From Bacteroidota bacterium (GTDB lineage: Bacteria > Bacteroidota > Ignavibacteria > UBA10030 > UBA8401): DNA of 64,000 nt. The DNA lies in assembly GCA_020052095.1 (NCBI GenBank), contig JAGVPT010000185.1:4769-68768 (forward strand). The letters are read 5' to 3'. Both the position numbers and the translations under genes were made by a program. How positions within the stretch are numbered: position 1 is the first letter of the stretch; each line of letters begins with the position of its first letter. Below, one piece after another: positions 15,977 to 61,981 of the stretch. Below the pieces are notes generated by a model, which did no database searches, was not told the DNA's origin, and worked only from the letters and a program-made list of their open reading frames with translations.

Positions 15977-16007
15977 GCTATCCGATTGCTATCAGCAATC
16001 GGATAGC
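15977..16007. repeat. 31-bp perfect palindromic repeat (copy 1 of 4): GCTATCCGATTGCT-atc-AGCAATCGGATAGC
   Basis: 14-bp perfect inverted arms with a 3-nt loop. The same element recurs at 22453, about 24258 and 61951. Confidence 0.8.
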
Positions 16008-16013
16008 TACGAA

Positions 16014-16042
16014 TTGTTAGCAGCGCTATCTTTTCGTATATT
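16014..16042 (+). promoter_or_regulatory. Candidate sigma70-type promoter for the ABC exporter-SCO transcription unit
   Basis: TTGTTA (16014-16019), 17 nt, TATATT (16037-16042); 27 nt upstream of the ATG at 16069. Confidence 0.3.
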
Positions 16043-16068
16043 GTATATGATTTTCTCTCATTTTCTCT

Positions 16069-17016
16069 ATGAATGAATCTATAGTCATCGTTTCGGATTT
16101 AACACACGACTACGCGGAACGCCGCGCCCTGGATAACGTCTCCCTCGCTATCGCCAAAAATGAGATTTTCGGTTTCCTCGGGCCAAATGGCGGTGGGAAG
16201 ACGACAATGTTCAAGATACTCTCCACTGCGATAACGCCGACAAGCGGCCGCGCTGAAGTGTGCGGGTACGATGTTGTCAAACGTTCATCCGAAGTGCGAA
16301 GGCATATTGGCGTCGTGTTTCAATCGCCGAGCCTCGATGTCAAGTTGACTGTGAGGGAGAATCTGCGATTTCACGGACTTCTTCACGGATTGCATGGAAC
16401 GACGGCCTCGCAAAGAATTGACGACGTGCTGATCCATCTGAAGCTCGTCGACCGAGCGCATGATACCGTGGAGATGCTTTCCGGGGGCTTGCAACGGCGA
16501 GTCGAAATTGGAAAAGGCTTGCTTCATCGTCCTGATGTTCTCATTCTTGATGAACCGAGCACGGGACTCGACCCGGGGGCGCGGCGAGATCTGTGGGACT
16601 ATCTGCTTCAGCTCCGCAAGGAGACCGGGGTTACGGTTGTCGTCACTTCTCATATATTGGATGAAGCCGAACATTGCGACCGCCTCGTGATTCTCGACAA
16701 AGGAAAACTTGTCGCTATCGGAACGCCGGATAAGTTGAAACGAGAGGTCGGCGGCGAGGTCATTTCAATTGTAGCGAAAGATCCTGCTGAGGCGCGCATC
16801 TTGCTGAAAAGGAAATTCAAGCTGGCATCGACAATCGTGGAGAACACAATTCGCGTCGAAAAGAACAACGGGCATCAATTTGTTCCGAAGATTGTGGAGG
16901 CCTTCCCGGGTAAAATCGAAGCCATCTCTGTGGGAAAACCGACGCTCGAAGACGTCTTCATTCATCACACAGGACACAGAATGCGAAATGAAGAATCGAG
17001 CGGGGTGGATACGTAG
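16069..17016 (+). CDS. ABC transporter ATP-binding protein (ABC-2 exporter type)
   Basis: Walker A GPNGGGKTT, ABC signature LSGGLQRRV, Walker B LILDEPSTGLD, H-loop. Confidence 0.85.
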   Translation: MNESIVIVSDLTHDYAERRALDNVSLAIAKNEIFGFLGPNGGGKTTMFKILSTAITPTSGRAEVCGYDVVKRSSEVRRHIGVVFQSPSLDVKLTVRENLRFHGLLHGLHGTTASQRIDDVLIHLKLVDRAHDTVEMLSGGLQRRVEIGKGLLHRPDVLILDEPSTGLDPGARRDLWDYLLQLRKETGVTVVVTSHILDEAEHCDRLVILDKGKLVAIGTPDKLKREVGGEVISIVAKDPAEARILLKRKFKLASTIVENTIRVEKNNGHQFVPKIVEAFPGKIEAISVGKPTLEDVFIHHTGHRMRNEESSGVDT

Positions 17017-17052
17017 TGCTGCTCCGAAAAATAAATATTGTGCTTTGAAATG

Positions 17053-17170
17053 TCTTGTCATCCTTCGACGCAGCCGCGACGGTCATCCTGAGCAAGCAGA
17101 GCGCGTCGTCAACGACCCGATGGGTCGTCGACCCGTCGGGAAGGAGGCCGTCGCGGCTTTGCTCAGGATG
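17053..17170. repeat. GC-rich composite intergenic repeat, copy A (short form)
   Basis: Shares tgtcatcc..ttcgacgc and a 39-nt core, cgtcaacgacccgatgggtcgtcgacccgtcgggaagga, with 18909-18947 (36/39 identical). Contains interleaved inverted repeats gccgcgacgg/ccgtcgcggc and catcctgagcaa/ttgctcaggatg. Confidence 0.6.
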
Positions 17171-17290
17171 AGCACCATGATAAGAATGCAAGATTGTTTA
17201 ATTGTCGCGGTACTAGCAACGGGGAGCCTGGAAAGAGAAAAGTATTAATCAAATATCCAACAGCAACCCATTAATCCGAAATAGAAACCA

Positions 17291-18073
17291 ATGAACATCA
17301 CCACAGAAATCGTATTGCCGACATACTCGCTCTGGATGAGGGAGTTGATCCGCTTTTTTCGTCAGAGGAGCAGGATGATTGGCGTGATTGGTTCGCCGAT
17401 ATTGTTCTGGTTCTTCATCGGTTCCGGGCTGGGGAGTTCTTTTCGGATGAGTTCGCCGAAGGGAGATACAAGTTATCTTGAATACTTTTTCCCGGGCACG
17501 CTCCTCCTCATTATGCTGTTCACTGCGATTTTCTCGACGATCTCGATCATTGAAGATAGGAAAGAGGGCTTCCTGCAATCGGTTCTGGTGGCGCCGATTT
17601 CCGGCGCCGGAATTGCACTAGGGAAGATATTTGGCGGCACAACTCTCGCGGTCATTCAAGCGATTATTTTTCTTGCCTTCGCGCCCCTCATCGGCTTTCA
17701 ATTTAGCGTTCTGGAATTCCTTTCCCTTATCGTGTTGCTTTTCGTTATCGCCTTCGGACTAACCGGCCTCGGCTTCCTGATCGCCTGGCGGATGGAGTCG
17801 ACACAGGGGTTTCACGCTATCATGAATTTGTTTCTGATCCCGCTCTGGTTGCTTTCGGGTTCCTTGTTTCCGATGGAAGGGGCCCCGGGATGGCTGCGAG
17901 GAATTATGTCTATCAATCCCCTTACCTATTCCGTTTCTGCCACAAGGCTGATGTTATATCATCAGGCTCGCATCGAACACCCGGGGTTCATTTTTTCAGT
18001 GTGCGTCATTCTCTCATTTTGTGCTATTGTATTTATCGGGTCAATGCTCTCCGTAAGAAAGAAATCAATATGA
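17291..18073 (+). CDS. ABC-2 type transporter permease
   Basis: 260 aa, 6 predicted TM, ABC-2 family-like; downstream of the ATPase. Confidence 0.7.
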   Translation: MNITTEIVLPTYSLWMRELIRFFRQRSRMIGVIGSPILFWFFIGSGLGSSFRMSSPKGDTSYLEYFFPGTLLLIMLFTAIFSTISIIEDRKEGFLQSVLVAPISGAGIALGKIFGGTTLAVIQAIIFLAFAPLIGFQFSVLEFLSLIVLLFVIAFGLTGLGFLIAWRMESTQGFHAIMNLFLIPLWLLSGSLFPMEGAPGWLRGIMSINPLTYSVSATRLMLYHQARIEHPGFIFSVCVILSFCAIVFIGSMLSVRKKSI

Positions 18074-18705
18074 AGTTATCGACCGGTCATATTTCGTTCC
18101 GCACTTTTTTTCTTTGGGGATTACTCGGGTTTGTGATTGCTGCCACCATATTTTCCTTTCTCTACACCGAGATAATATCTCCCGCCAAAAGCTCTCTGCC
18201 GCGTACTGGAATAGTTCCAGAAATCACTCTTACAGAGCGTAGCGGCCGGAAACTCCCGCTCTCCGATCTGAAAGGGAAGGTGTGGATCGCCGATTTCATC
18301 TTCACAAACTGCGGCGGCAGTTGCCCCATCATGACCAGCACAATGGCGAGCTTTCAAGAACAGATTAAGAATGTGAACAATATTGTTCTTGTTTCGTTCA
18401 CCGTCGATCCTGAACGCGATTCTCCTCAAGCCCTCAGCGAATATGCGGAACTCTACAAGGCGTCTCCTTCTCGATGGCTCTTCCTGACAGGGGAGAAGAA
18501 GAAACTGAATTACCTGACGCGCGATTGCTTTCATCTTGCCGTTGCAGCTGATTCCGGATCGACCGTCGAACCAATCGTTCACAGTACGCTATTTGTTCTG
18601 GTCGATAAGCAGGGAGTCATCCGTGGATATTACGACTCAACTGACGAAAACGCGCTCGAGAAGATTGTCGCAGATGCCCGCGGATTGGCATCTGAAAAGA
18701 ATTGA
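18070..18705 (+). CDS. SCO1/SenC family copper chaperone (thioredoxin-like; CuA assembly)
   Basis: N-terminal TM anchor; CGGSCP (CxxxC) motif and a downstream His, as in SCO proteins. Its ATG overlaps the permease stop (ATGA at 18070-18073). Confidence 0.75.
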   Translation: MKLSTGHISFRTFFLWGLLGFVIAATIFSFLYTEIISPAKSSLPRTGIVPEITLTERSGRKLPLSDLKGKVWIADFIFTNCGGSCPIMTSTMASFQEQIKNVNNIVLVSFTVDPERDSPQALSEYAELYKASPSRWLFLTGEKKKLNYLTRDCFHLAVAADSGSTVEPIVHSTLFVLVDKQGVIRGYYDSTDENALEKIVADARGLASEKN

Positions 18706-18722
18706 AGACTATCTCAAAAACG

Positions 18723-18950
18723 CTCTGTCATCCGCCCTTCGACGCTCCCGAGTTCGTCGGTCGACGACTCGACTCGTCGAGGTCTATCGACCCGTCGGGT
18801 CGTTCTACGAATCTACGATTCGTAGAATCGTAGATAGACGACTCGTCGAGGATTGCTCAGGGTGAACAGGTTCCGTGTTCATCCTGAGGTGAGCGAAGCG
18901 AACGCATCGTCCACGACCCGATGGGTCGTAGACCCGTAGGGAAGGATTGA
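18723..18950. repeat. GC-rich composite intergenic repeat, copy B (long form)
   Basis: Same ends as copy A, plus about 130 extra nt containing gacgactcgactcgtcgagg, tcgacccgtcgggtcg and the hairpin ctacgaatc-tac-gattcgtag. Internal segment 18745-18810 matches 22650-22702 in inverted orientation. Confidence 0.6.
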
Positions 18951-19004
18951 TTGGAATGATTTTGAAATAGCTTATAGTCAACTACTCCATCCGAATCGCT
19001 GAGA

Positions 19005-19424
19005 GTGGTGATGGACTTGTCTTTTCTGCCAACCGTGAACGCTTTCTTGAATGGACTGACCGGCGCATTGCTGTTAGTTGGTTATTTTTTTATTCGAAAA
19101 GGGAACCGATCCATACACAAAAGAGTGATGCTGACTGCTTTCTCAACCTCAATCTTGTTCTTAATCTCCTACCTTTACTATCACGCTCACGTCGGATCCA
19201 TCCCCTTCAAAGGAACAGGCGTGGCGCGTCCCGTTTACTTTACAATTCTCGTCTCACATTCGATTCTTGCGGCAGTAATTGTGCCCATGGCAATCGTCAC
19301 GCTATCTCGCGCATTGTCATCCCGATTTGACAAACACAAAAAACTCGCTCGCTGGACGCTCCCAATTTGGCTTTACGTGTCGGTGACAGGAGTGACAGTA
19401 TATGTGATGCTGTATCATCTGTGA
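19005..19424 (+). CDS. DUF420-family membrane protein (CtaM-like oxidase accessory factor)
   Basis: 139 aa, 4 TM, conserved His-containing helices typical of DUF420, which is associated with aa3 oxidase operons. Confidence 0.6.
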   Translation: MVMDLSFLPTVNAFLNGLTGALLLVGYFFIRKGNRSIHKRVMLTAFSTSILFLISYLYYHAHVGSIPFKGTGVARPVYFTILVSHSILAAVIVPMAIVTLSRALSSRFDKHKKLARWTLPIWLYVSVTGVTVYVMLYHL

Positions 19425-19464
19425 AGAACAGACTTAGGTGGACTGAGGGGCCGGAAATGAAAAA

Positions 19465-19493
19465 GGCTGGTCCCGACGTGGTCGGGATCAGCC
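19465..19493. terminator. Bidirectional intrinsic terminator between convergent DUF420 gene and PNP gene
   Basis: GGCTGGTCCCGAC-gtg-GTCGGGATCAGCC hairpin (one mismatch), flanked by an A-run upstream and a T-rich stretch downstream. Confidence 0.5.
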
Positions 19494-19537
19494 TTTGTAT
19501 TGTACGAGCGGTGATGGCGCCGGAGAGATCCGGCCGG

Positions 19538-20368
19538 TTAACCGATATGCAATACAATTTCCGTCAATAGTCTTGTAAAATTGTGCTTCACTCTGTTGGC
19601 GACTTCAGTGACCTCGGCATGGTTTAGCTTGTTACTGCTTAATCCGGTCGCCAAATTGGTGACGCAGGAAATTCCAAGCACCTCCATTCCATAATTCGCG
19701 GCGACGATTACCTCGGGAACGGTGGACATACCGACGGCATCTGCGCCGAAGTTTGCCATCATGCGGATCTCCGCTGCCGATTCGTACATCGGCCCCTTCG
19801 TCCAACAATAGACTCCTTCCTTAAACGGAATGTTGTTTTCGAGCGCAATCGATTGTGCCTTTAAAAGCAATTCATGACTGAATGGGGATCGCCCTCTACC
19901 GGTCTCGTTCGTTTTCCTTCCGATGAGAGGACTTTCAAATGTTGCATTGATGTAATCTTTTATGAACATCAAATCGCCAGGCGAAAGCTGTGGGTTAATT
20001 CCCCCGGCGGCGTTAGTCACAATGATTGTTTTGATGCCGATACGATGTGCGACTTCGATGGGATAGACGACGATATCGTTGTCGTTACTTTCATACAAAT
20101 GAATCCGACCTTGAAACACCATCAGATCGGCCGATGTGCCACTCCCCGATCGGATTTTGCCGAAGAGAATCTTACCGGCATGACCTTCAACTGATGAAAT
20201 TGGGTAATGCGGAATGTTTTTTGTGTCGATCGAAATCTTGCCGATGAGTTGGTTGCCGAAATCCCCGAGGCCCGAACCAAGCACAACGCTGATTGTAGGC
20301 TGCGTCGATATTTTTGATTTGATGTATTCGACGGAAGCGTTGATATGCGATTGATAATCGACGTTCAT
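19538..20368 (-). CDS. Purine nucleoside phosphorylase (PNP family I, PunA/MTAP-like)
   Basis: PNP-I motifs (VVLGSGLG, VEGHAGKILFG, MSTVPEVIVA); 276 aa. Confidence 0.85.
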   Translation of the reverse strand: MNVDYQSHINASVEYIKSKISTQPTISVVLGSGLGDFGNQLIGKISIDTKNIPHYPISSVEGHAGKILFGKIRSGSGTSADLMVFQGRIHLYESNDNDIVVYPIEVAHRIGIKTIIVTNAAGGINPQLSPGDLMFIKDYINATFESPLIGRKTNETGRGRSPFSHELLLKAQSIALENNIPFKEGVYCWTKGPMYESAAEIRMMANFGADAVGMSTVPEVIVAANYGMEVLGISCVTNLATGLSSNKLNHAEVTEVANRVKHNFTRLLTEIVLHIG

Positions 20369-20369
20369 C

Positions 20370-21722
20370 TTATGAGCCTACCAAGATGCCGGCAATAGTT
20401 GCGGTCATTAAAGTGGCCAAACTCCCACCAAGCACGGCGCGGAGTCCGAGGGAGGCGATGTCTTTCTTCCGCTCAGGCGCGAGGGGGCCGATTCCGCCGA
20501 TCTGAATCGCGATGGAGGAAAAATTCGCAAAACCGCAAAGAGCATAGGTTGCCATCATCACTCCCTTTTCACTCATTGCATTTGCTTTTAGAAGGGAAGC
20601 GAGATCGAGATATGCGACGAATTCATTAAGGACAATCTTTGTTCCGAACAAGCTGCCGAAGTGCATGGCATCCGCCCATGGAACGCCGATGCCAACCGCA
20701 AGATATCGCAAGACAAGTCCGAAAATGAGTTGCAGTGAAAGGGGCGCTCCATAATTCGCCTGTAACATTCCGTTCACGTGAAGAAGGTCGCCGACGGCAA
20801 GAAAGAGGTAATTGAAGAGGGCAATGAGCGCGATGAAGGCGAGAAGCATGCCGGCGACGTTGAGCGACAATTGCAGTCCATCTCCTGCGCCGGTTGCAGC
20901 GGCCTCAATCACGTTGGATGCATTTTTTGGAATGTCGAGTTTCACGGTCCCCCTCGTAACCGGCTCGCCTACCTCGGGATAAATTATTTTTGAAATCGCA
21001 AGCGAGGCGGGAGCCGCCATCGTGCTTGCGGCGAGTAACTGCACCGCAAATTTTAATTGTGCCTCCGCCAATGGAATATGGTGCGCCTCGGCAAACGACT
21101 GTCCCAGCATTTGAATGTACCCTGCCATGACGCCGCCGGCGATCGTTGCCATTCCACCGACCATAATGGTGAGGATTTCTGAATTTGTCATTTTCCCTAT
21201 ATACGGACGAATGAACAACGGTGCTTCCGTCTGTCCGACGAAGATATTTGCCGTATTGGAAAGGGATTCAGCTCCGCTCGTTCCCATCGACTTTGCCATG
21301 ACCCATGCCATACCCTTCACAACCAATTGAAGTATCCCCAGATAGTACAGAATCGAAGTAAGTGACGATACGAAAATGATTGTGGGGAGGACTTGAAATG
21401 CAAAAAAGAAGCCAATGCTATCGGGACCAGAATTGATCGCGAGTTTCCCAAAAACGAACTCCGACCCCTTCGTCGTGAATCCGAGCAGGCTTACTACAGC
21501 GCCGCCAAGCCAGTCCACGCTGTCCTTCAACCATCCAAGCGGAAAGAACCATGAACGAAGCGTCTCGCTATGAATGATCAGGATGGCAAAACCGAGCTGT
21601 ATACCCAAGCCGGTGGCCACCAGACGCCAATTTACTCTCCTCTTATTGTTCGAAAAAAGAAAGGCGATTCCAATCAGCAGGATGATTCCTAGAATTCCAC
21701 GAAGCACGGAGATCATATCCAT
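20370..21722 (-). CDS. nupC: Concentrative nucleoside transporter (NupC/CNT family)
   Basis: 450 aa polytopic membrane protein with NupC-like conserved segments (GFTTKGSEFVFG, IALIALFNYL). Confidence 0.75.
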   Translation of the reverse strand: MDMISVLRGILGIILLIGIAFLFSNNKRRVNWRLVATGLGIQLGFAILIIHSETLRSWFFPLGWLKDSVDWLGGAVVSLLGFTTKGSEFVFGKLAINSGPDSIGFFFAFQVLPTIIFVSSLTSILYYLGILQLVVKGMAWVMAKSMGTSGAESLSNTANIFVGQTEAPLFIRPYIGKMTNSEILTIMVGGMATIAGGVMAGYIQMLGQSFAEAHHIPLAEAQLKFAVQLLAASTMAAPASLAISKIIYPEVGEPVTRGTVKLDIPKNASNVIEAAATGAGDGLQLSLNVAGMLLAFIALIALFNYLFLAVGDLLHVNGMLQANYGAPLSLQLIFGLVLRYLAVGIGVPWADAMHFGSLFGTKIVLNEFVAYLDLASLLKANAMSEKGVMMATYALCGFANFSSIAIQIGGIGPLAPERKKDIASLGLRAVLGGSLATLMTATIAGILVGS

Positions 21723-21759
21723 CGTTTATCTCTTCTTCATTTAGTGAAAAAGCTACGAG

Positions 21760-22332
21760 CTATTCTTTGGGAGGTCTGAAACAGAGACGGCAGCGCGCCT
21801 CGTAGAGATCTTTCGCGCCGACCACGACGCGTTCGTGAGAATCGGATGTTCGCTGGGTACGGTCTGCCGGGTTTCCACATACGACACAGATGGCGAGCGT
21901 CTTGGTGATGTACTCGGCAACGGCAAGAAGCTGCGGCATTGGCTCGAAAGGCTTGCCTCGATAATCTTGGTCAAGCCCCGCGACGATAACTCGCTTACCT
22001 TCATTCGCCAGTTGCTCGCAGACGTCAACAATTTTCGCACTGAAGAATTGTCCTTCATCCACGCCGATGACCTGCGCTTCGGAGGAAAGCGCTAGAATCT
22101 CTTCGGCTGTTTCAACGACTGTAGAAATGAGCGATTGTTCGCTATGCGAGACTATGTGATTCGAGCTGTACCGATTGTCTATGCGGGGTTTGAAGATTAT
22201 CACTTTCTGTCGGGCGATCTGTGCGCGCCGCATCCGGCGAATTAATTCCTCAGTCTTGCCGCTGAACATACATCCGGCGATGACTTCGATCCATCCTGTG
22301 TTTTTCGGGTTGGAATGAAGGGTTGTTTCCAT
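21760..22332 (-). CDS. tdk: Thymidine kinase
   Basis: P-loop [11 protein letters not shown] and C-terminal Zn ribbon CVVCG...CRLC. The start is set at the internal METTLHS; the listed ORF start at 22425 adds a non-conserved extension. Confidence 0.85.
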
Positions 22333-22452
22333 TAAGGGGAGTGGATTCTGGTGATATTGACGGTGATTTCCGTGAAAAATATAGAAAAATGGACTCGGAA
22401 AAGCAAGGGAAGGCTGGTGCCTCATCTTGGAGGACTTGCAGCAGTGAACCAG

Positions 22453-22483
22453 CTATCCGATTGCTGCGAGCAATCGGATAGCT
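22453..22483. repeat. 31-bp perfect palindromic repeat (copy 2): GCTATCCGATTGCT-gcg-AGCAATCGGATAGC, plus conserved 3' tail tcgaaactgcaccactgcc
   Basis: Exact arm identity with copy 1. The tail is shared with copies 3 and 4. Confidence 0.8.
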
Positions 22484-22589
22484 CGAAACTGCACCACTGC
22501 CAAGGAAGGCGTTCGATGTGTTGTGTCTCTGTTGTCCTTGAAGAGGGAGAGTCTCGTTGGTGAACTCCATTTTCTCGTTAAGCACCACC

Positions 22590-22760
22590 CCTTAGTCTCC
22601 TCCTCAATGAGGAAGGGCAGGCCCGGCCTGTCCGCTCAACGAGTCGTCTACGACCCTAAGGGTCGGTAGAGCTCAACGAGTCGAGTCGTCGACCGTAGGG
22701 AGTCTTCGACCGTCTTTTTGGCGGACCTGTCCGCCGTCTTTTTGGCGGAAGCGCCAGGGG
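22590..22760. repeat. GC-rich composite repeat, copy C (partial, inverted) with adjacent short direct repeat
   Basis: cgtctacgaccctaagggtcggtagagctcaacgagtcgagtcgtcgacc is about 80% identical to the reverse complement of 18757-18806. Followed by ccgtctttttggcgga repeated twice, around a ggcggac/gtccgcc hairpin. Confidence 0.5.
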
Positions 22761-22840
22761 TGGTGGCAAACAATCCCGCTAGAAGTGTCTCACTTTCCTT
22801 GGGACACGGAGAGCTTCATTGTTGGCTCCCATCGGCAAGC

Positions 22841-24073
22841 TTACTGTAGTGTAATTTTTGTGATTTCCGGCGGGCAATTCACACGGAAGGGGACACCGAC
22901 GGTTCCGATCCCCCGTGTAACATACATTTGGGCATTGTTAAATTTATAGAGTCCCCAAACGTATTTGGAAAATAACGTCGCCGGCGAGATGTACGTGTTG
23001 CCGATCTTCGCAAAAACAACCTGCCCACCGTGTGTATGTCCGGCGAGGGTTAGGTCGATGTTATGTCCGGCGATCGTCTCGAGAAAGTACGGTTTGTGGC
23101 AGAGTAGGATCTTTGGGTTGGAATTCTGGACCGATGATAGCGCGCGGGCAAGATATGTTTCGGGTTTGCCGCTCATCGGAATATCGTCGACCCCAATCAC
23201 GTTAATGAATGAATTTCCTTTGTGAATCTTGACTGCACCGTCCCGCAAAAGCTTGACGCCGCAAGCATCGACTTCTTTTGCCACAACATCCACATCGGCA
23301 AAGTAATCGTGGTTGCCAAGACAGCCGTAGATTCCGTACGGCGCACGTAGGGCGGAAAACGCTTCCGCGAATGGATAGACTTCCTCAGTCTGACTGTTGA
23401 CGAAATCCCCCGGTACGAAAATTATATCGGTTTTCAGATTATTGAGGGCGGCAACATAGTCATCCATCTCCGGCTTTGTCATGAACACGCTGGAATGAAT
23501 GTCGCTCATCAATCCAACAGTGAATCCCTTGAATTCATCCGGCAGATTAGCGATTTGCACGGTCTTTTCAATGATGTCATATTCGTCTCGGTCGATTACT
23601 CCTTTTGCAGCGCCGATAAAGGAATATGCAGACAACGCCACTGCGCCTGTTTTCAAGAAGACACGACGCGACTTGTCAAAATGTTCGTATCCCGGTGTCG
23701 ATTTCATTGCAATAATTTTTCGCTGAAGTGGATGATTGAGTTTTCCTAGCTGATAGATCATGTCAAAGGGAAGTTTGAGAATTCTCAGAATTCCCAGCGC
23801 CAAAAAAATAAAAAAAGTCGCACCATGCCACACATAAAAAGGCAAAACGGCCGCGTAGAGAAAAGGCTTCGAGAACTCAGTCAAGAAGACGCGATGAAAG
23901 AGGAGAACCAGGAGCGGCGCGTTGAACAGAAGGAAAAGAAACGACACAAGGCGCGAAGTCCACGGAGGGATTTTTCCATTGCTCTTGATCGACGAAAGGG
24001 AGCGCTTGTGCAAATACCATTGAATTAGTGTAACCAATATTTGAAAAATGAAAAATCCCGTCGTTCGGTTCAT
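22841..24073 (-). CDS. Membrane-anchored metallophosphoesterase (calcineurin-like phosphoesterase)
   Basis: Several N-terminal TM helices, then GDFV, GNHD and GHTHGGQ metallophosphoesterase motifs. Confidence 0.75.
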   Translation of the reverse strand: MNRTTGFFIFQILVTLIQWYLHKRSLSSIKSNGKIPPWTSRLVSFLFLLFNAPLLVLLFHRVFLTEFSKPFLYAAVLPFYVWHGATFFIFLALGILRILKLPFDMIYQLGKLNHPLQRKIIAMKSTPGYEHFDKSRRVFLKTGAVALSAYSFIGAAKGVIDRDEYDIIEKTVQIANLPDEFKGFTVGLMSDIHSSVFMTKPEMDDYVAALNNLKTDIIFVPGDFVNSQTEEVYPFAEAFSALRAPYGIYGCLGNHDYFADVDVVAKEVDACGVKLLRDGAVKIHKGNSFINVIGVDDIPMSGKPETYLARALSSVQNSNPKILLCHKPYFLETIAGHNIDLTLAGHTHGGQVVFAKIGNTYISPATLFSKYVWGLYKFNNAQMYVTRGIGTVGVPFRVNCPPEITKITLQ

Positions 24074-24250
24074 CGATATCCGATGTTGGTGAATGCCCCA
24101 TAAATCCCTGCGAGAATACGTATGATCTTAGAGCGGGGGACTTTGAATAGATTGACGTTCTTTTGCAAAAGGGATTGTATAATATAACGATTTTCCCAGA
24201 AATTTGATGCATTCATCTCTATAAGGTAATGCCGCATTTGCAGCGGGCAA

Positions 24251-24305
24251 GAAACTGTCCGATTGCTGAGAGCAATCGGATAGCTCGAAACTGTACCGCT
24301 GCCCT
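24251..24305. repeat. Palindromic repeat copy 3 (left arm partly degenerate) with conserved tail
   Basis: gaaactgTCCGATTGCTgagAGCAATCGGATAGCtcgaaactgtaccgctgcc. The arms are 12/14 relative to the other copies, and the tail is identical in pattern to copy 2. Confidence 0.7.
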
Positions 24306-24473: not shown

Positions 24474-24815
24474 ATGTATTCGTTCCTGTTAGCAATTGAG
24501 ATCATTGTCAGTATTCTTCTAATAATAGTAATTCTGATGCAAAACAGTAAGGGGGGAGGTCTGGCAGGTTCTTTGGGAGGCGGAAATTTTGGGACAGTAT
24601 TTGGTGTGCGACGCACCGCAGATTTTCTGACACGTGCTACAACAATACTGGCAACAACGTTCATAGCCCTGGCTTTGATCATCAACATCTTCTACTTACC
24701 TGGAAAAGGTGCTTCATCCAAGGAAAGCGTGATCCAGAGCGGCCAGACAACTGTGCCGCCGGCACAATTGCCACCGCAAACTCAACCATCGCCCACAAAT
24801 TCGCCCCAAAAATAG
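24474..24815 (+). CDS. secG: Preprotein translocase subunit SecG
   Basis: Two TM helices with a Gly-rich loop QNSKGGGLAGSLGGGNFG; P/Q-rich C-terminal tail. Confidence 0.7.
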   Translation: MYSFLLAIEIIVSILLIIVILMQNSKGGGLAGSLGGGNFGTVFGVRRTADFLTRATTILATTFIALALIINIFYLPGKGASSKESVIQSGQTTVPPAQLPPQTQPSPTNSPQK

Positions 24816-24831
24816 GCCTTAGGTTGTCCAA

Positions 24832-24904
24832 GCACCCATGGCTCAATTGGTAGAGCAACTGACTCTTAATCAGTGGGTTCCAGGTTCGAGTCCTGGTGGG
24901 TGCA
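24832..24904 (+). tRNA. tRNA-Lys (anticodon CTT)
   Basis: Hand-folded cloverleaf. Acceptor gcaccca/tgggtgc, D stem gctc/gagc, anticodon stem actga/tcagt with loop cTCTTaa, T arm ccagg-ttcgagt-cctgg. 73 nt, CCA not encoded. Confidence 0.9.
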
Positions 24905-24913
24905 CAGAAAAAT

Positions 24914-28635: not shown

Positions 28636-30495
28636 ATGAAAACTCGATTCGGAAGTGTGGTTCTTCTCCTTGTGGTAGTCTTTCAGGCACAGCTCTTTGC
28701 CGTGGACCTCGAACTCGAAAAGAAAAAGATGGAGCGGGATCTCGAAGATCGCACTTCCACGGAAATCCGCCGTTATTTTTCAGATCTTAATTTCCTTGTC
28801 ACTGCCGAAGTAACTCTTGTCGATTTAACTCCTCCTGTGAAGAAAGACAGAGGCGACAATAAGGATTTTCTCCTTCCCGGAGTTTCCGGTTTTCAGGCCG
28901 AGACTCAACGTTCGGAGGAATCGGCAAAACCTCAAATCGGTATTGAATCCATCGTCATCAAATTGTTGATTGACAAGAATAGGACGATGGAAGAAAAGGA
29001 CTTGCTCACAAACATCACGTTCTATACCGGCAAGCTCAATAAGGTTCGAGGAGACAGAGTTGATATCCAGGAAATGTCTTTTCCGGCAAGCACGCTGCAG
29101 GTCCAGCGGGAGCAACAGAGAGCAGAACAGGAAAAGCGCATTCAGGAACTGGAGAAGGCGAAACAGGATGCCGATCTCCGCGCGGCCCAACAACAAAAGG
29201 CCCAACCAGATCAGCTCACGCCGGCGAAACAACCTGAAAGTTTTCTGAGCCCCACAACAATGTTGTTATTGGGTCTTGGTCTGTTATTGCTGATTATTAT
29301 CGTCGTACTGCTGGCACGGGGAAGGAAGCAAAGTACCCCGGAAGCACAACAACCGCCGGCGCAGATGATGCCAGCGCAGCAGGGAATTCAGGGGGCGGAA
29401 GGCCAGGGGCAATCAGGTCTTCAGCAAGCCGTGATCGAACAGAATACAGAATTCCAAGAAGCGATGGAAGTCGATAAGGTGCGTCATAATCTCATTGCGA
29501 CATGCGCCGGCGAATCCGACTTAACGTCGAACGTCATCCGAGACATGATCGCGGATGCCACTCAGAAAGAACGACTCATGTTGGTGATATCGCAACTTGG
29601 GAATAGTCTTCTGCAGGTCATGAGAGACTATTTTTCCATCGACGAGATGAAAGTGCTTCAGGAGTTATCCCTTGAAAAGCAGGAAAAAACGCCGATGGAA
29701 ATCCGGGAGGCGCTCGCATCATTCCAGAACCAGCTTGCGATAAAGCGATTCTCCCAGGCCCGAAACACAAAGCAAAATCCATTTGCATTCCTTGAAAAAC
29801 TTTCGGAACCGCAGCTATATCTGTTAATGAAAGACGAACCGCCCGGAATCATTGCAATCATCTTGTCGCAGCTCAGTACGCCGATCGCAAGCTCTATGCT
29901 TAAGAACCTCCCGTCAATGCAGCAGGGAGAGGTCGCGTTGGAATTGGGCAAACTGCGTCGCCTGACCTCGGATACGTACGTTTCCGTCGCAAAGCAGCTC
30001 GCGGGGAAGGCAGCGACCATTCCGGTGATCAACAACGTTCAAGTGCAGGGGACTGATCTCTTGCTCGACATCTTTGACAATATTGACGAAACGGCAGAGT
30101 CGTCAATCATCGAATTCATTAAGGTGGTTAATCTTGATTTGTATCGGGAAATAACGAGTCAGCGCGTTTCCTTTAGTGCAATCAATCAGTTGGATGAAAG
30201 ACTTCTCCGTCAGATTGTGAAAGATATCTCTGGGGATGAGATGGCAATCGCTCTGAAGAATGCGCCGAAGGAAATCAGTGAACGCTTCTTCTCCGTCCTG
30301 CCGTCAAAGTCGAGAATTATTTTGGAAGACCGGCTGACATCTATGAAGAGCGTCTCTCCGGACGACGAATTGAAGGCACGCCGGCGAATTACACGAATGG
30401 TGCGGACGTATATGAAGTCTGGCGGCGCGTCTCTGGCCGCGGCCCCGGCAGCAGAGGGAACGGGAGAAGAGGCTAAGGAAGAGCAGCTTCAGTGA
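28636..30495 (+). CDS. Membrane-tethered FliG-like protein: signal-anchor plus about 200-aa periplasmic coiled-coil region plus TM helix plus complete FliG (N, M, C domains)
   Basis: Residues about 270-600 align by eye with E. coli FliG across its length. The middle domain has KDEPPGIIAIILSQL, corresponding to DEHPQIIATIL. The C-terminal torque-helix region is LLRQIVKDISGDEMAIALKNAPKEISERFFSVLPSKSRIILEDRL, corresponding to IQRLLQEVDSESLLIALKGAEQPLREKFLRNMSQRAADILRDDL. The N-terminus has a hydrophobic signal/anchor, a Q/E/K-rich coiled coil, and a second TM (TMLLLGLGLLLLIIIVVLL). Confidence 0.7.
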   Translation: MKTRFGSVVLLLVVVFQAQLFAVDLELEKKKMERDLEDRTSTEIRRYFSDLNFLVTAEVTLVDLTPPVKKDRGDNKDFLLPGVSGFQAETQRSEESAKPQIGIESIVIKLLIDKNRTMEEKDLLTNITFYTGKLNKVRGDRVDIQEMSFPASTLQVQREQQRAEQEKRIQELEKAKQDADLRAAQQQKAQPDQLTPAKQPESFLSPTTMLLLGLGLLLLIIIVVLLARGRKQSTPEAQQPPAQMMPAQQGIQGAEGQGQSGLQQAVIEQNTEFQEAMEVDKVRHNLIATCAGESDLTSNVIRDMIADATQKERLMLVISQLGNSLLQVMRDYFSIDEMKVLQELSLEKQEKTPMEIREALASFQNQLAIKRFSQARNTKQNPFAFLEKLSEPQLYLLMKDEPPGIIAIILSQLSTPIASSMLKNLPSMQQGEVALELGKLRRLTSDTYVSVAKQLAGKAATIPVINNVQVQGTDLLLDIFDNIDETAESSIIEFIKVVNLDLYREITSQRVSFSAINQLDERLLRQIVKDISGDEMAIALKNAPKEISERFFSVLPSKSRIILEDRLTSMKSVSPDDELKARRRITRMVRTYMKSGGASLAAAPAAEGTGEEAKEEQLQ

Positions 30496-30515: not shown

Positions 30516-30556
30516 AAAGAAAGAGCACCTTGGGAAAGGTGCTCTTTCTTTTTCTA
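30516..30556 (+). terminator. Strong intrinsic terminator closing the MotAB/FliG-like operon
   Basis: 14-bp perfect stem AAAGAAAGAGCACC / GGTGCTCTTTCTTT with an 8-nt loop, followed by a T-run. Confidence 0.7.
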
Positions 30557-56079: not shown

Positions 56080-56129
56080 TCAAAATCCTTCAGTAAAAGG
56101 AAACAGGGAGTGAGTCCGCACTTTGCGGA

Positions 56130-57500: not shown

Positions 57501-57542
57501 TGAAGCCTCCAAAGTGAAAATTGTAATTCATCTACTTACACA

Positions 57543-57998
57543 CTATTTGAATCTCGGAAGAACATATGTTTCACGGATATCCTTCAGCGCCACCGGAACT
57601 GAATGCTTCTCTCCTGTCGACAACGTCAACGACGTCTCAGTGACTTCTTCCAATATTCCAGTTAGTGGTTCACTGTTTGCGTTCGAAATTATCCTCAACT
57701 GGCGTCCAATATTCTTGCGAAACTGCCGTTCGAGTTTCAGCGGGCGCTCTAATCCCGGTGAGGAGACCTCTATTCTGTATCTTCCAGTGAAAATACTTTG
57801 GCTTTCAATCTCCGGGGAAATCCTCCGGCTGACCTCGGCGCATTCATCCGCCGTGATGCCGTTGTCCGTATCAACAAATACTTCGAGGACTGTGGTGCCG
57901 GCTTCGCCCCGCATGTTCAGATCGACGAGATAACCCTTTATCGGCTCAAGAATCGGCGTCGTGAATCTTGAAATCTGCTCAAAAAGCTCTGTTTTCAT
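57543..57998 (-). CDS. rimP: Ribosome maturation factor RimP
   Basis: RimP N- and C-domain pattern (GYLVDLNMRGEAGTTVLEVFVDTDNGITADEC...YRIEVSSPGLERPLK). Start taken at MKTELFEQ. Confidence 0.8.
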   Translation of the reverse strand: MKTELFEQISRFTTPILEPIKGYLVDLNMRGEAGTTVLEVFVDTDNGITADECAEVSRRISPEIESQSIFTGRYRIEVSSPGLERPLKLERQFRKNIGRQLRIISNANSEPLTGILEEVTETSLTLSTGEKHSVPVALKDIRETYVLPRFK

Positions 57999-58014
57999 GG
58001 TCTCTTCCACCGTC

Positions 58015-58089
58015 AAAAAAAAGTCCCGCTTGAGGCGGGACTTTACATTGCGGCGCATATAATATACCCAACGCTAGGCTTAGAAGCAA
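58015..58089 (-). promoter_or_regulatory. Leader of rimP-nusA-infB: candidate promoter followed by terminator-like hairpin plus U-run (possible attenuator); also terminates the upstream gene
   Basis: On the minus strand: TTGCTT (58089-58084), 17 nt, TATATT (58066-58061). Then hairpin AGTCCCGC-ttgag-GCGGGACT (58042-58022) followed by TTTTTTTT (58022-58015), 17 nt before the rimP ATG. Confidence 0.35.
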
Positions 58090-58113
58090 GAGAAATGTTC
58101 ATGAAATCGAGCG

Positions 58114-61100
58114 CTAGAAAAAGGCACGCACTTCCGCCCTGGCGGTATGAATCGGTGCGCGAAATTGTTCGGACCGCCCCATGTATTGCAGCGATGATTG
58201 AAGATTGCCGCTGAGGCGATAGTCAAACGTAACGCCCCAGAGGAAAGTTTTCCCGTCTCCTCTTCCGCCAGTGAGCTCAAACGGGATCAACAAACCCGCC
58301 GGCGCGTTTTCCAGTAGAATTTCCTCGCGAGAAAAATCTATGCGCACCTGACCTGCATTCCGGAACGAGACGGCCGTCCGGAGCGATTGGCTGTTGAAGT
58401 TCGCTGCTACCAGAGCGGACGGGTAGGCATCTTCAGACCTTGACACTTCGATTTTGAATCCGACTTCCACGTTTTGCTCGGGGCGGTACGAATAATCGGA
58501 ACTTAGACCATCGGACGCGATCATCCTTGAACGGGCGCTGTTCACCGATGCCCTAACGTTGTCTTGCTTGTTGATGTACTCAAGTTGGTTAGAAATCTCG
58601 GTGACCAATTGCAATCGGACTCGAATCGATCGCTCGCGAGAGTAGCTTTGCTCCAGCCCGGAGCTGTATTGTCCCAATCCTCTTCGTTGTTGATAACGGA
58701 AGCGAAATGAAAAATCGGACCTATTCTCAAAGAGAAAAATATCTTGCTGGAGAAGCTGGCTGCCGAGAATAGTTGTCGCCGGCTGAAGAAATCTGCTGAA
58801 ATCCAAAAGGTAGATTTTCCTTGTGTCAGTCTCTGAACTTTTCTCTTCGATACGGACATAACTTTCAGTTGAAACGACGGCGAGCGCTTTCTCCGACCAC
58901 GAGGATGGAGAATTAATAAATCGGGTTGGCGTGAATCGGAGCCGGATTGACGTCTTCAAGTCGATAACGGGATACAGCTCGTCACTGGGTATTGTGATGA
59001 CAATATAGTCGCCGTCAAACCTGCTGAGACGGAAATCTCTTTCATCAGCAACGTCGACCCTGCCGTTGCGAATGCCGTCTGTCCAGACGTATTGTCCGTC
59101 TCCCTTCCGGACTTGGTAGAATATTCTTTCGAGCTTGGCAGAGCGTTGGGTTGAAACCTCATAGAAGACGTCGGCGTCGATACTTCGCCGGAGGGGCGCG
59201 TAGCGCGATTGAGATCGAAGCAAAATCGTCTGAACGTCGCCGTTTGTGAGTCGAAACGTACCATTGTACATTTTTTCCCGAAGAATAACGTTTGCCCCGG
59301 ATGAAAAATTCGCGATCTCAGGGAGCGACCAATTATACGCTTGCGTCAAGGAGCGAGATTGCGGATGAAGTCTCCCCTCGATGGGCGCTCTGTCGTCTCG
59401 CATCTCAAATTCGGCGGAGACATTCATACTATAAATCCCCGTTGCAGAGACTTTCGGTGCGACGGTCGTAAAGCCGAAACTCGCAGGGTTCAACGAATCG
59501 GTTGCTCCAGTTTCAAGCGTTCTTTTTTCAGTTTCAAAACGAAAGCTCGGCGTGATTGTGCTTAGGGTGTAGGAAATCGTACCTCTTTGCCGTAGCCAGA
59601 CATTCTTCCCGACAGATGCCTTTTGCGAGCTGGTGATCTGCTCAATAGTGTAGTCGCCATTGGGGAGTGAATCGGCATTCATTTGAATGAATGCGTCTAT
59701 TCTGTCTGCAGAGAATTGATTTCCCCGTCTATTACTCCCAAGCGAGCCCCCGATGGAAACAGTCTGCAGTGGATTGTACGCCATGCGAGCTTCACGAATC
59801 TCTTCCGATGCGGGCTGCACGGTCACCGTGCTGTCCAAACTCCACTTCCTCCCGAACTCCACGTCGTCGGAGCGGTCAATGGAAATAAAATTCTTGTTCA
59901 CATATCTGTCGGACAGCGAAAAATCGAATGAACCGATGTCGTTCCCGCCTATTTTCACGTTTGCAGGAGTATAATGGGCCAATAATTTCATTGCCCCGCC
60001 AGTTTTATCGTCGCCGACTGAAAACCTATTTGCATTGTAACTGCTCCCGGCATATTCGCCTGCTATCGAAAAATTCTTCATAACTTGGATAGTTGTCTTC
60101 ACATCCGCTAGCTGCTGAAGTTGCGGGGAGGGCAAGATCACAATCGGTAAATATTGTCCATTGTGAGATCCCACGTAACGGTAGCGCCCCAAAGACTCTC
60201 GAATATAGTCACCCTGCCCTCCTCCGACAAAAGAGAACGCGACGTTAAACTGCGCTTCGGGTGTTCCAGGTGAGAATCTGTACAACCTGACATTCGCTCC
60301 TTGCAGTGCGGTATCTACAGCAATATACTGCCCTTTTCCGAGGTTCGAAGAATCGACACCAACCGAGTCTACCCCAGATTTTGTCGCCGTAGTGCTCCCA
60401 CTTTGTTGTAAAATTTTCTTGTCACTGTCGCTCAAAGATAGATCAATTGGAGCGTTGGGATCGTCTCCCTCCCTCGCGTAGACGATGGAAAGTTTCACGT
60501 CGTCGTGAATCGTCTGAGACATAGTTTGCGCAGCGAAGAAGTTTCTCGTGTAGGCGCGGTCTGTGTATTGAAAGTCCACCACAATGCGTGAAGCACTCGT
60601 AATTAACCTCTTGGAGGAAAAGACTATTTCAGAGCTGGCATAATCAATCGCGTAATCGTTAGTTTCGCCCCTTAACATTAAGTTGCCATCGACGTAAACT
60701 TTCTCTGTTCCGGCGATGACTATGATATTGCGCTCATTGTTCTTTCCGAACAAGCGATAGGGCCCTTGCACTCCTTCAATCCCTGCAAATTGATTTATAT
60801 TGAACTTTCCCCTCGAGGTCGCACCGATCACCGTCCCTGAGTTGGAAATGGCCCCTGTCGAATAATATGCGGTCCCCTTTGCTCCTTGTAGCTTTCGACT
60901 CAAGCGCCCAAAGTCACTCCCCACAAGATCGATGTAGAAATCTCCTAGGGTCGCTTCGTAATTAGTGCTTTTTACTTCCACAAACACTTTGTCCAGTTCT
61001 TGTAGGGTCTGTGTGTTTCCCTCCGGCTGTATGGGCGTATTCTCATCTGTGAGAGCGGCAAGAATCTCAACGTCGGAAGAGAGTTTTCCTGCAAATTGAA

Positions 61101-61638
61101 GTCGAAAACCAGAATTGAGAGTCAAATCTCTGTTGGAGCCGACACTGAATCCTCTAAAAATGCTGCCACTTTTTTGAAGTTCATTTCCGAAGATATCACT
61201 GAGCGGAGACACATTCGTTGTCACGATTGTGGCGCGATGATTAATGCTGTCTCGACGGACAGTATAGTTTTTATGCCAATAAGGAGATTGAAATGAAAAC
61301 GGTAAGAAATTGTATTGTAGGTAGATATTGACTTCTCTGTCTTTAAAATCTATGTCTCTTTTCAGATTTATGGTAACCCTCCCAGTGGAATTTTCGATGA
61401 CATAGTCCACCCCTCGATTGAGCTTTAAGGAGTCGAGATGCAGAGATTCCGAATTTGGAATTATGAGATCGTGGGAGAGCTGGATCGAAGTATCGGGTCT
61501 AGAGATGCGGAAATGGTCGAATGTTTGGGTGATTTGCTGGAGAGGTTGAGCGTAAGCTGCTCCCAAGCGGAAGGCAAAGATGAGAGCTAGTAAGAATAGG
61601 GTAGTACGTATGTCGGAAGTCGGTCTCAAGGAAGACAA
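58114..61638 (-). CDS. Large (1174 aa) secreted, beta-rich, outer-membrane-like protein of unknown function
   Basis: N-terminal signal peptide (LFLLALIFAFRLGAAYAQ). Pervasive alternating-residue beta-strand patterns, many Tyr/Gly/Ser/Asn, and a C-terminus ...AEVRAFF with terminal aromatic residues, typical of OM beta-barrels. Confidence 0.6.
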   Translation of the reverse strand: MSSLRPTSDIRTTLFLLALIFAFRLGAAYAQPLQQITQTFDHFRISRPDTSIQLSHDLIIPNSESLHLDSLKLNRGVDYVIENSTGRVTINLKRDIDFKDREVNIYLQYNFLPFSFQSPYWHKNYTVRRDSINHRATIVTTNVSPLSDIFGNELQKSGSIFRGFSVGSNRDLTLNSGFRLQFAGKLSSDVEILAALTDENTPIQPEGNTQTLQELDKVFVEVKSTNYEATLGDFYIDLVGSDFGRLSRKLQGAKGTAYYSTGAISNSGTVIGATSRGKFNINQFAGIEGVQGPYRLFGKNNERNIIVIAGTEKVYVDGNLMLRGETNDYAIDYASSEIVFSSKRLITSASRIVVDFQYTDRAYTRNFFAAQTMSQTIHDDVKLSIVYAREGDDPNAPIDLSLSDSDKKILQQSGSTTATKSGVDSVGVDSSNLGKGQYIAVDTALQGANVRLYRFSPGTPEAQFNVAFSFVGGGQGDYIRESLGRYRYVGSHNGQYLPIVILPSPQLQQLADVKTTIQVMKNFSIAGEYAGSSYNANRFSVGDDKTGGAMKLLAHYTPANVKIGGNDIGSFDFSLSDRYVNKNFISIDRSDDVEFGRKWSLDSTVTVQPASEEIREARMAYNPLQTVSIGGSLGSNRRGNQFSADRIDAFIQMNADSLPNGDYTIEQITSSQKASVGKNVWLRQRGTISYTLSTITPSFRFETEKRTLETGATDSLNPASFGFTTVAPKVSATGIYSMNVSAEFEMRDDRAPIEGRLHPQSRSLTQAYNWSLPEIANFSSGANVILREKMYNGTFRLTNGDVQTILLRSQSRYAPLRRSIDADVFYEVSTQRSAKLERIFYQVRKGDGQYVWTDGIRNGRVDVADERDFRLSRFDGDYIVITIPSDELYPVIDLKTSIRLRFTPTRFINSPSSWSEKALAVVSTESYVRIEEKSSETDTRKIYLLDFSRFLQPATTILGSQLLQQDIFLFENRSDFSFRFRYQQRRGLGQYSSGLEQSYSRERSIRVRLQLVTEISNQLEYINKQDNVRASVNSARSRMIASDGLSSDYSYRPEQNVEVGFKIEVSRSEDAYPSALVAANFNSQSLRTAVSFRNAGQVRIDFSREEILLENAPAGLLIPFELTGGRGDGKTFLWGVTFDYRLSGNLQSSLQYMGRSEQFRAPIHTARAEVRAFF

Positions 61639-61751
61639 TACTAAATAGTCAAACCTACATCGTAAAAACGGGACGCCCGACCTCCAAAAAAATGCAGAAA
61701 GAGTTGTTTTGAAAAAAAGTCATCTGGCAGCATGCTTGATGACTTTTACAG

Positions 61752-61837
61752 TACCAAAGGTCGGACTCGAACCGACACCTGGGGTAAGCCAGACTGGATT
61801 TTGAGTCCAGCGCGTCTACCAATTCCGCCACTTTGGC
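61752..61837 (-). tRNA. tRNA-Leu (anticodon CAA), type II with long variable arm
   Basis: Hand-folded. Acceptor gccaaag/ctttggt (one G-U), anticodon stem ctgga/tccag with loop ctCAAaa, long variable arm, T arm gtcgg-ttcgagt-ccgac. 86 nt. Confidence 0.85.
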
Positions 61838-61950
61838 TTATTCGTATCATAATATAAGCAACTTAGTCTGGCAAGGCAAGAGTTTTTCGGGTGATAGTAA
61901 GCTTTTCGACGTAGCTTCCATTCTCGGCGTAGGAACGATGTCACGAACAA

Positions 61951-61981
61951 GCTATCCGATTGCTGAGAGCAATCGGATAGC
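61951..61981. repeat. 31-bp perfect palindromic repeat (copy 4): GCTATCCGATTGCT-gag-AGCAATCGGATAGC
   Basis: Identical arms to copies 1 and 2; lies between tRNA-Leu and the TonB-like gene. Confidence 0.8.

Follow-up and report, generated by a model that had tools for sequence, protein, structure and literature searches.

The 64-kb window analysed here (the whole stretch of 64,000 nucleotides, from contig JAGVPT010000185.1 of a Bacteroidota bacterium) carries, between its genes, four copies of one short palindrome. Repetitive extragenic palindromes (REPs) are short, non-autonomous hairpins that are spread and maintained by a domesticated, single-copy transposase of the Y1/HUH type, the REP-associated tyrosine transposase (RAYT, or TnpA-REP). 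A RAYT gene lying between two copies of the hairpin is called a REPtron. Our analyses make it very probable that the four palindromes belong to a REP family with a cognate RAYT, that is, to a REPtron. The evidence is the build of the palindromes, their dispersal in related genomes and the RAYT genes that the same hairpin flanks in four relatives.

The four palindromes of the window

A sequence-only reading of the window had described the palindromes, and their presence is borne out by counts. The 14-mer GCTATCCGATTGCT, with up to two mismatches, has eight arm matches in the window against 0.43 expected, a number reached by none of 100 shuffles, and the paired pattern CCGATTGCT-N3-AGCAATCGG has four matches against 0.05 expected. 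That reading had given 14-bp arms and a 31-bp unit. Direct reading and an inverted-repeat scan instead give AGCTATCCGATTGCT-N3-AGCAATCGGATAGCT as the repeat unit, 33 nt long, with perfect 15-nt arms and an A...T pair closing the stem. The three-nucleotide loop varies among copies as described (Table 1), and the slightly degenerate left arm noted for copy 3 corresponds to two mismatches in its left foot, ACTG in place of GCTA. The positions first assigned to copies 1 and 4 hold, while those of copies 2 and 3 shift one base lower (14-nt arms at 22452-22482 and 24254-24284).

Scoring the window position by position with a covariance model revealed no fifth copy. Lone 10-mer arms or their 9-mers are absent from the window outside the four pairs, except for two isolated 9-mer matches. 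Folded as RNA, the hairpin of copy 1 reaches -24.7 kcal/mol (z = -8). Rfam searches of the window, run with gathering and with permissive cutoffs, returned only the tmRNA and two tRNAs, with nothing overlapping the copies even at E <= 10. In size and stability, the element is what a REP should be: a short palindrome that folds stably, into 15 perfect base pairs closed by a loop of 3 nt.

Table 1. Copies of the probable REP in the window and the one-sided tails beside three of them
Feature	Position	Strand	Description
REP copy 1	15976-16008	.	perfect 15-3-15, AGCTATCCGATTGCT-atc-AGCAATCGGATAGCT; covariance model 57 bits
REP copy 2	22451-22483	.	perfect palindrome, loop gcg; 58.6 bits
REP copy 3	24254-24284	.	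left foot degenerate, ACTGTCCGATTGCT; right arm intact; loop gag; 51 bits
REP copy 4	61950-61982	.	perfect palindrome, loop gag; 60 bits
Copy 2 tail, CGAAACTGCACCACTGCC	22484-22501	+	tail end pairs with GCAGTG at 22442-22447, giving an outer stem around the hairpin
Copy 3 tail, TCGAAACTGTACCGCTGCC	24285-24303	+	CCGCTGC pairs with GCAGCGG at 24240-24246; outer stem in the minimum-energy fold
Copy 4 tail, CCTAACCGTACCGGCACC	61983-62000	+	diverged form of the tail of copies 2 and 3

The genes around the copies were named by Pfam. Copy 1 lies 10 nt past the ctaB stop codon (15015-15965, +) and 60 nt ahead of an ABC-transporter ATPase gene (16069-17016, +). Copy 2 stands between a metallophosphoesterase gene (22841-24085, -) and tdk (21760 to about 22335, -), 357 nt downstream of the former and upstream of the latter on the minus strand. 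It does not follow tdk, as had been stated; the context given for copy 1 was right. Copy 3 stands where the metallophosphoesterase gene (-) and secG (24474-24815, +), the latter followed by tRNA-Lys (24832-24905, +), diverge, and copy 4 lies 98 nt downstream of the stop codon of a TonB-C-domain gene (62081-62899, -) and 112 nt upstream of tRNA-Leu-CAA (61751-61837, -).

The conserved 3' tail that the first reading attributed to three copies is real for copies 2-4 (TCGAAACTGCACCAC, TCGAAACTGTACCGC and TCCTAACCGTACCGG) and faint for copy 1. A similar tail, CCTGACCGTAC, follows the orthologue of copy 1 in the related contig L145. Beside copies of three other genomes, the GAAACTG motif is found in 6 flanks (0.24 expected), of which one belongs to an orthologue. 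The one-sided tail (CGAAACTGTACC... or CGAAACTG...) is confined to a subset of copies, including three in the window, and we rejected it as a universal feature of the family, only about 5 of 47 copies elsewhere carrying it.

A hairpin family and the RAYT genes that it flanks

One genome per species was scanned with the pattern TCCGATTGCT-N(2-6)-AGCAATCGGA, which returned 55 loci; the inner 10 bp of the stem (TCCGATTGCT/AGCAATCGGA) are fixed by this pattern, and the copy counts in relatives are lower bounds. About two thirds of the loci are 3-nt-loop copies in metagenome-assembled genomes (MAGs) labelled Bacteroidota or Ignavibacteriales. Copies with the exact core were found at 10 loci in the 4.2-Mb chromosome OY970334.1, 11 in MAG CAYJMS and 6 in the Ignavibacteriales MAG JACPGG. 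The remaining loci are scattered single matches in unrelated phyla, with other loop lengths and no extended stem, and are taken to be chance. The source genome of the window is not among the GTDB representatives scanned, no locus having the same flanks, and looking up an exact match to the protein of one window gene returned nothing. Copy numbers are thus modest, four in the 64-kb window and 10-11 exact-core copies per genome, as minimum figures, in two relatives. The sequence-only reading had staked its proposal on there being copies beyond the four, or copies in relatives, and the hairpin proves to be dispersed in several related genomes.

The stems of the family reach 4-6 bp past the searched core, and this outer part varies among copies yet stays complementary. 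Because the inner 10 bp are set by the search, only the outer five pairs are informative for covariation, and there any sequence occurs provided that the arms pair. In an alignment of 41 sequences, columns 8/34 hold UA 18 times, CG 14, AU 5, GC 3 and UG once, with none unpaired, and columns 6/36 hold GC 28 times, CG 7, AU 4 and UA once. Stem pairing is found in 99% of cells, compared with 12-38% in slid controls, and the covariation score was reached by 0 of 500 shuffles. The loop sequence is free, TAA and TTA being the most frequent. At one orthologous site, the hairpin has been kept behind an orthologous gene of three species whose proteins are 85-91% identical; the core there never changes, the outer pairs covary and the loop differs.

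The copies are strongly biased in position. All four in the window are intergenic, as first described; across the non-redundant set, 45 of 48 are extragenic, although 83% of the bases lie in called open reading frames (ORFs). Of these 45, 22 start within 12 nt of the 3' end of an ORF, compared with 119 of 1720 random intergenic positions (7%) from the same loci, and the bias has a Fisher p of 3e-12 at a 20-nt threshold. For some copies, the stem begins at the base right after the stop codon. An all-against-all BLAST of the 1,295 ORFs from the loci revealed no protein family recurring beside the copies; the neighbours are mutually unrelated.

When every ORF of the loci was searched for motifs, two HUH/Y1 proteins proved to be encoded immediately next to copies. 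One is encoded in OY970334.1 (locus L042, 7128-7703), a protein of 191 aa with the HUH (NHYH) and tyrosine (YIHLNP) motifs. A perfect copy of the hairpin (7075-7107) ends 20 nt upstream of its start codon, and a degenerate copy (about 7708-7740) begins 4 nt past its stop codon. The protein matches Pfam Y1_Tnp (E = 2e-8) and NCBIfam NF047646, 'REP-associated tyrosine transposase' (63 bits, E = 2e-17). Its homologues at E <= 1e-10 number more than 7,600, from Bacteroidota, Ignavibacteriales and Calditrichota MAGs, and many bear the Joint Genome Institute (JGI) name 'REP element-mobilizing transposase RayT'. Across 19 aligned homologues, H55, H57, Y115, N119 and P120 are invariant; these are the HUH histidines, the catalytic tyrosine and the N-P of the Y...NP motif. 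A PDB sequence search with the protein gave no match at E <= 0.01.

Orthologues in three other assemblies (84, 71 and 68% identity) occupy one syntenic site, in the order 3-hydroxyacyl-CoA dehydrogenase genes, RAYT, amidase_3, YajQ and saccharopine dehydrogenase. In four genomes (L042, L136, L137 and L138), a hairpin of the TCCGATTGCT type stands on either side of the RAYT gene, and the hairpins beside the orthologues show small mirrored variants, such as CGATCTGATTGCT/AGCAATCAGATCG. Residence at a single fixed location is as expected of a domesticated RAYT and not of an insertion sequence (IS) (Bertels 2017). The organism of the window, an uncultured bacterium of Bacteroidota/Ignavibacteria type, falls within this group. 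Its proteins find their best matches among sequences at 92-98% identity and in MAGs labelled Bacteroidota or Ignavibacteria, and they are 68-76% identical to those of OY970334.1 and of MAG JBAUMC, each of which has the cognate RAYT.

The hairpin and the RAYT also change together over a wider range. A metagenome scan with the RAYT alignment added 80 loci, at 35-51% identity. None of these 80 contains the TCCGATTGCT core; many have a perfect palindrome on both sides of the gene, with a 15-nt arm of A...T build, a 3-nt loop and a lineage-specific sequence, for example AGGTGCGACGCACTT, AACCTTGCGAAGGTT, AGAAACCGGATTTCT or AAGTGACAGTCACCT. Under strict criteria, matching 3-nt-loop palindromes stand on both sides at 21 of 84 RAYT-homologue loci, many contigs being too short to tell, and most of the 21 have the 15-3-15, A...T build. 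Arm identity is 0.40 between pairs with 40-50% RAYT identity, 0.76 at 60-70% and 0.93 at 70-85% (Spearman 0.34, p = 2e-17, 595 pairs). Co-evolution of this kind has been described for REP/RAYT pairs (PMC6006769, PMC8266576). The initial suggestion of a REP-like repeat, or a site for a RAYT-type transposase, is therefore supported both by the flanking of the RAYT in four relatives and by the tracking of hairpin and protein over the 84 loci.

Separately, an in-frame, REP-like palindrome, such as AAGCCATCCGATAGCT-taa-AGCTATCGGATGGCTT, lies inside the RAYT genes nearest to the cognate type (L042 7563-7591; L136 and L137 10433-10467). Its translation adds about 12 residues (NPSDSSKLSDGF) behind the Y motif, and the palindrome scores 41-48 bits with the hairpin model; more distant homologues are without it. 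REP insertions within tnpA-REP genes have been reported for subclass 2.4 (Quentin 2018, PMC6006769).

A probable REP system and its alternatives

Several observations weigh against the assignment to a REP family with a cognate RAYT. A regex scan found no RAYT gene within the window, so that the cognate RAYT and the copy number of this genome are inferred from relatives. The RAYT proteins score 63-72 bits, under the NCBIfam equivalog cutoff of 80. The one RAYT observed in MAG CAYJMS (L046) has another hairpin, ACATCCCCGTTTTCT..., on either side, and the TCCGATTGCT element lies just beyond it. The density, about three exact-core copies per Mb in the two best-sampled relatives, is far below that of classical REP-rich genomes. 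No GTAG or CGTC stands next to the stem, whose foot is AGC-N-A with all bases paired; such a conserved, unpaired tetranucleotide at one foot marks the majority of the REP superfamilies so far described, as in Di Nocera 2013. Finally, the window contains neither inverted doublets of the REPIN type (two REPs set a fixed, short distance apart) nor the mosaics of alternating REP types known as bacterial interspersed mosaic elements (BIMEs). All four copies are singletons, and the BIME-like part of the sequence-only reading is not upheld; copies clustered with hairpins of other families are confined to some relatives (L034, L046, L054 and the ctaB-ABC spacer of L145). With no tag and no REPIN or BIME arrangement, the family belongs with the untagged, perfect-palindrome REPs, already a recognised group (PMC8266576).

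The comparison with known REPtrons, such as those of E. coli, Stenotrophomonas maltophilia and Marinomonas (Ton-Hoang 2012; Corneloup 2021, PMC8266576; Bertels and Rainey 2011, PMC3116915), shows both likenesses and differences. As in those systems, the palindromes are short (20-40 nt) and extragenic, with dispersed copies that lie mostly downstream of genes, and a vertically inherited Y1/HUH gene, here at a fixed syntenic site, is flanked by the repeat, with the sequences of repeat and protein tracking each other. Unlike in those systems, there is no GTAG/CGTC foot tag and the stem sequence is the conserved part; the copies are singletons instead of REPIN doublets or BIME clusters and are few in the sampled relatives; the hosts are uncultured and of Bacteroidota/Ignavibacteria type; and the RAYT falls below the NCBIfam equivalog cutoff. 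The ends of IS200/IS605 elements and their miniature derivatives (palindrome-associated transposable elements, PATEs) offer another analogy, since there too a Y1/HUH enzyme recognises subterminal hairpins in single-stranded DNA. In contrast to IS200/IS605, the RAYT gene is syntenic across species, its motif is Y...NP and not Y..NQ, and the hairpins are dispersed without an IS body.

Within the classification of Quentin 2018 (PMC6006769), two subclasses come close. Subclass 2.1 (group 1), likened to the TIRYTs (terminal inverted repeat-associated tyrosine transposases), has the signature NH[YF]H / FQ / Y[IV]HLNP and no REP found. The RAYT motifs NHYH, LFQ and YIHLNP fit this subclass, a likeness at the level of motifs, while the proteins described here (182-202 aa) are without the long C-terminal helix-turn-helix extension reported for it. 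If the present RAYT is of subclass 2.1, its clear flanking REPs contradict the statement that this subclass has none. Subclass 2.6 (Bertels group 5) comprises Bacteroidetes in which 'atypical secondary structures' flank the gene and have copies elsewhere. The Bacteroidetes hosts and unusual flanking hairpins fit, and a second RAYT, encoded in the 81% identical relative L141, has the 2.6 signature YIHQNP.

By analogy with characterised RAYTs and IS200/IS605 transposases, the RAYT would bind the hairpin as folded single-stranded DNA, and would cut and rejoin it at the foot, so that the element is copied or moved. The sequence of the inner stem is itself likely to be read by the enzyme, because there is no GTAG-like tag and the inner stem is constant where this can be checked, at the one orthologous site. 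According to Corneloup 2021 (PMC8266576), the perfect-palindrome REP group is recognised by a strategy unlike that of E. coli. With lower confidence, the -25 kcal/mol hairpin could act in mRNA, just after the stop codon, as a 3' barrier, either a stabiliser or a weak or bidirectional terminator, and a hairpin very near the stop codon may influence translation termination of the upstream gene. Such effects would explain the stop-codon bias of the copies, as would selection against promoter disruption. According to what Liang, Rudd and Deutscher reportedly found in 2015, E. coli REPs within 15 nt of a stop codon reduce the translation of the upstream gene. About half of the copies described here likewise begin within 12 nt of a stop codon, and a comparable effect on translation is a hypothesis.

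The same bias could be read as the mark of a host cis-acting RNA element of 3' untranslated regions, a stabiliser or a site for an RNA-binding protein, selected independently of the transposase and only incidentally linked to the RAYT. The covarying stem, the very stable fold and a copy retained at an orthologous position across three species, where the core is unchanged and the changes in the outer stem compensate each other, would suit such an element. Against this stand the symmetry of the palindrome, which reads alike on both strands and occurs in either orientation to genes, and the copies in divergent promoter regions or upstream of genes (copies 2 and 3). Moreover, the hairpin lies on both sides of the RAYT in four genomes and tracks its sequence, copies are gained and lost among close relatives, and no Rfam family matches. 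We therefore regard an RNA element independent of the transposase as unlikely, although a secondary RNA role may exist alongside the REP identity. Still less probable is that the copies are ordinary rho-independent terminators sharing a sequence by chance. Many copies do follow stop codons directly, some lie between convergent genes, and the stem, partly G+C-rich, is stable. Only 10 of 94 flanks have TTTT within 10 nt, so the copies do not qualify as canonical intrinsic terminators; the identical 10-bp core stands behind unrelated genes of different genomes, and copies also lie upstream of genes and 5' of RAYT genes. The window, besides, holds a separate hairpin at 30516-30551 that, with its A/T tracts, looks like a canonical terminator.

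Two further explanations, both highly improbable, start from the inverted repeat itself. A dimeric regulator controlling the neighbours might use it as a double-stranded operator, and the conserved 10-3-10 inverted repeat and the position of copy 3 in a divergent promoter region would agree with this. The sequence-only reading had named a regulator as its alternative. It finds no support here: the neighbours are functionally unrelated, most copies follow stop codons instead of standing at promoters, no regulator gene recurs beside them, and the covariation of the outer 5 bp is unexpected for a duplex operator. The conserved 10-mer in inverted pairs, with a variable loop and downstream of genes, also recalls the paired DNA uptake sequences (DUS) of Neisseria, which double as terminators. 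This reading was rejected, since the window shows no excess of single arms (two isolated 9-mers only), and in 230 kb of related loci the covariance model finds paired copies only.

The preferred reading thus remains a REP/RAYT system of known type, an ordinary genome feature in a little-studied lineage and not a surprising one. No description of the TCCGATTGCT hairpin family was found in the literature, the arm strings matching only unrelated primer and small interfering RNA (siRNA) sequences. More speculatively, the loci could sample a large, undescribed REPtron superfamily in Bacteroidota, Ignavibacteria and Calditrichota. It would be defined by a strict 15-bp stem of A...T build, a 3-nt loop, the lack of a GTAG/CGTC guide and a stem sequence read by the enzyme. 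Insertion or retention within about 12 nt after stop codons would then couple targeting or function to gene ends, and the mirrored insertion in L145, described below, could mean that the arms are copied from each other. We consider this broader proposal possible, though rather doubtful.

REP/RAYT systems have been studied almost entirely in Proteobacteria, and the present family adds a clean example from uncultured hosts of Bacteroidota/Ignavibacteria type. Since the hairpin changes in step with the RAYT over a gradient of relatives, it provides natural 'swap' pairs for recognition experiments, and the bias to the first 12 nt past stop codons is open to tests for an effect on mRNA ends or translation termination. 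In annotation, the copies should carry the label of repeat element, and the labels terminator, operator and small RNA should be avoided. They also account for contig breaks and for local rearrangements in the MAGs of this group.

History of the copies and neighbouring repeats

The history of the window copies was followed in syntenic contigs, ranked by the identity of the metallophosphoesterase: L143 (98%), L144 (91%), L145 (87%) and L146, which is OY970334.1 (68%). Copy 3 is identical in L143, including its defective foot, heavily decayed and interrupted in L144, and absent from L145. The palindrome of copy 2 is decayed in L144, where its tail and outer-stem sequences are still recognisable, and the whole segment of about 150 nt is missing from L145. 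Copy 1 has an orthologue in L145 (19843-19877), likewise 10 nt after ctaB. This orthologue is a perfect palindrome of 16-3-16 build, in which a mirrored extra base in each arm adds one pair to the stem (AGCTATCCCGATTGCT/AGCAATCGGGATAGCT; ATCCCGAT / ATCGGGAT). As far as the sequences tell, this mirrored insertion suggests that one arm served as template for the other, or that the original gave way to a variant element, and not that two mutations arose independently.

The spacer between ctaB and the ABC-transporter gene measures 495 nt in L145 (19393-19888) and 103 nt in the window (15966-16068). In L145, another copy, part of which is deleted, follows after about 420 nt, and the bracketed stretch holds other hairpins, for example CGCTCCCAAG-ttccg-CTTGGGAGCG. 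The left flank of copy 1 in the window matches that of the first L145 copy and its right flank that of the second, so that one of the two arrangements arose from the other, either through an insertion at the repeat or through recombination of two repeats. Copies are gained, persist for long and decay, and they mark points of rearrangement, as REPs are expected to do.

Copies 2 and 3 bracket the metallophosphoesterase gene in direct orientation. The possibility that this gene is mobile cargo was considered and rejected, the gene occupying the same site in relatives without one or both copies. The region beside it varies: L145 carries a block (1-9400) of genes with TIR, HEPN/ApeA and DUF87 domains, resembling a defence island, and in OY970334.1 (L146 8935-9939) an rve-family integrase/IS lies directly upstream.

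Other hairpin families accompany RAYT genes in the relatives. The hairpin flanking the RAYT of CAYJMS reads ACATCCCCGTT(A/T)TCTTAnAGA(T/A)AACGGGGATGT and was located in L046 (4322-4352 and 4950-4985), L034 (about 5600) and L054 (about 4515). It repeatedly adjoins TCCGATTGCT copies, and the two make up mixed pairs that resemble BIMEs. A second REP family, AAGTCATGCCATGACT-taa-AGTCATGGCATGACTT, lies 22 nt upstream of the second RAYT gene (182 aa, YIHQNP) of L141; its sites are L140 4733-4767 (a lone hairpin), L141 2865-3465 and L009 about 740-770. Position 3742 of L141 aligns to position 2 of the window, and the locus of this second RAYT would fall just upstream of the window start.

In the loci L016 (about 7130-7260), L040 and L041 (reverse strand), a conserved promoter-like pair, TTGACA...TATATTG, lies downstream of the conserved hairpin. 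The same region contains a stretch similar to the beginning of a cobalamin riboswitch (GGTGTCCCGTC...GACGGGATGAAAAGGGAA).

Three further repeat structures were noted in the window. Directly after tRNA-Leu, on the minus strand, an imperfect 15-3-15 hairpin (61714-61748; AAAAGTCATCTGGCA-tgc-TGCTTGATGACTTTT) scores 15 bits with the REP model and is probably the tRNA terminator, though it has the same geometry as the REP copies. The hairpin at 30516-30551 is a perfect 16-4-16 palindrome (AAAGAAAGAGCACCTT-ggga-AAGGTGCTCTTTCTTT), 20 nt past a gene ending at 30495. With A/T tracts on both sides it resembles an ordinary bidirectional intrinsic terminator, unlike the REP copies. Lastly, a cluster of short inverted repeats, including CTCAGGGTGAACAggttccgTGTTCATCCTGAGG, occupies 18740-18935. 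A 59-nt piece of it recurs, reversed, within a 190-nt insertion in L140 (13397-13593), a contig 89% identical, and this insertion is absent at the orthologous site of the window (9789-9812). The cluster looks like a second small mobile repeat.

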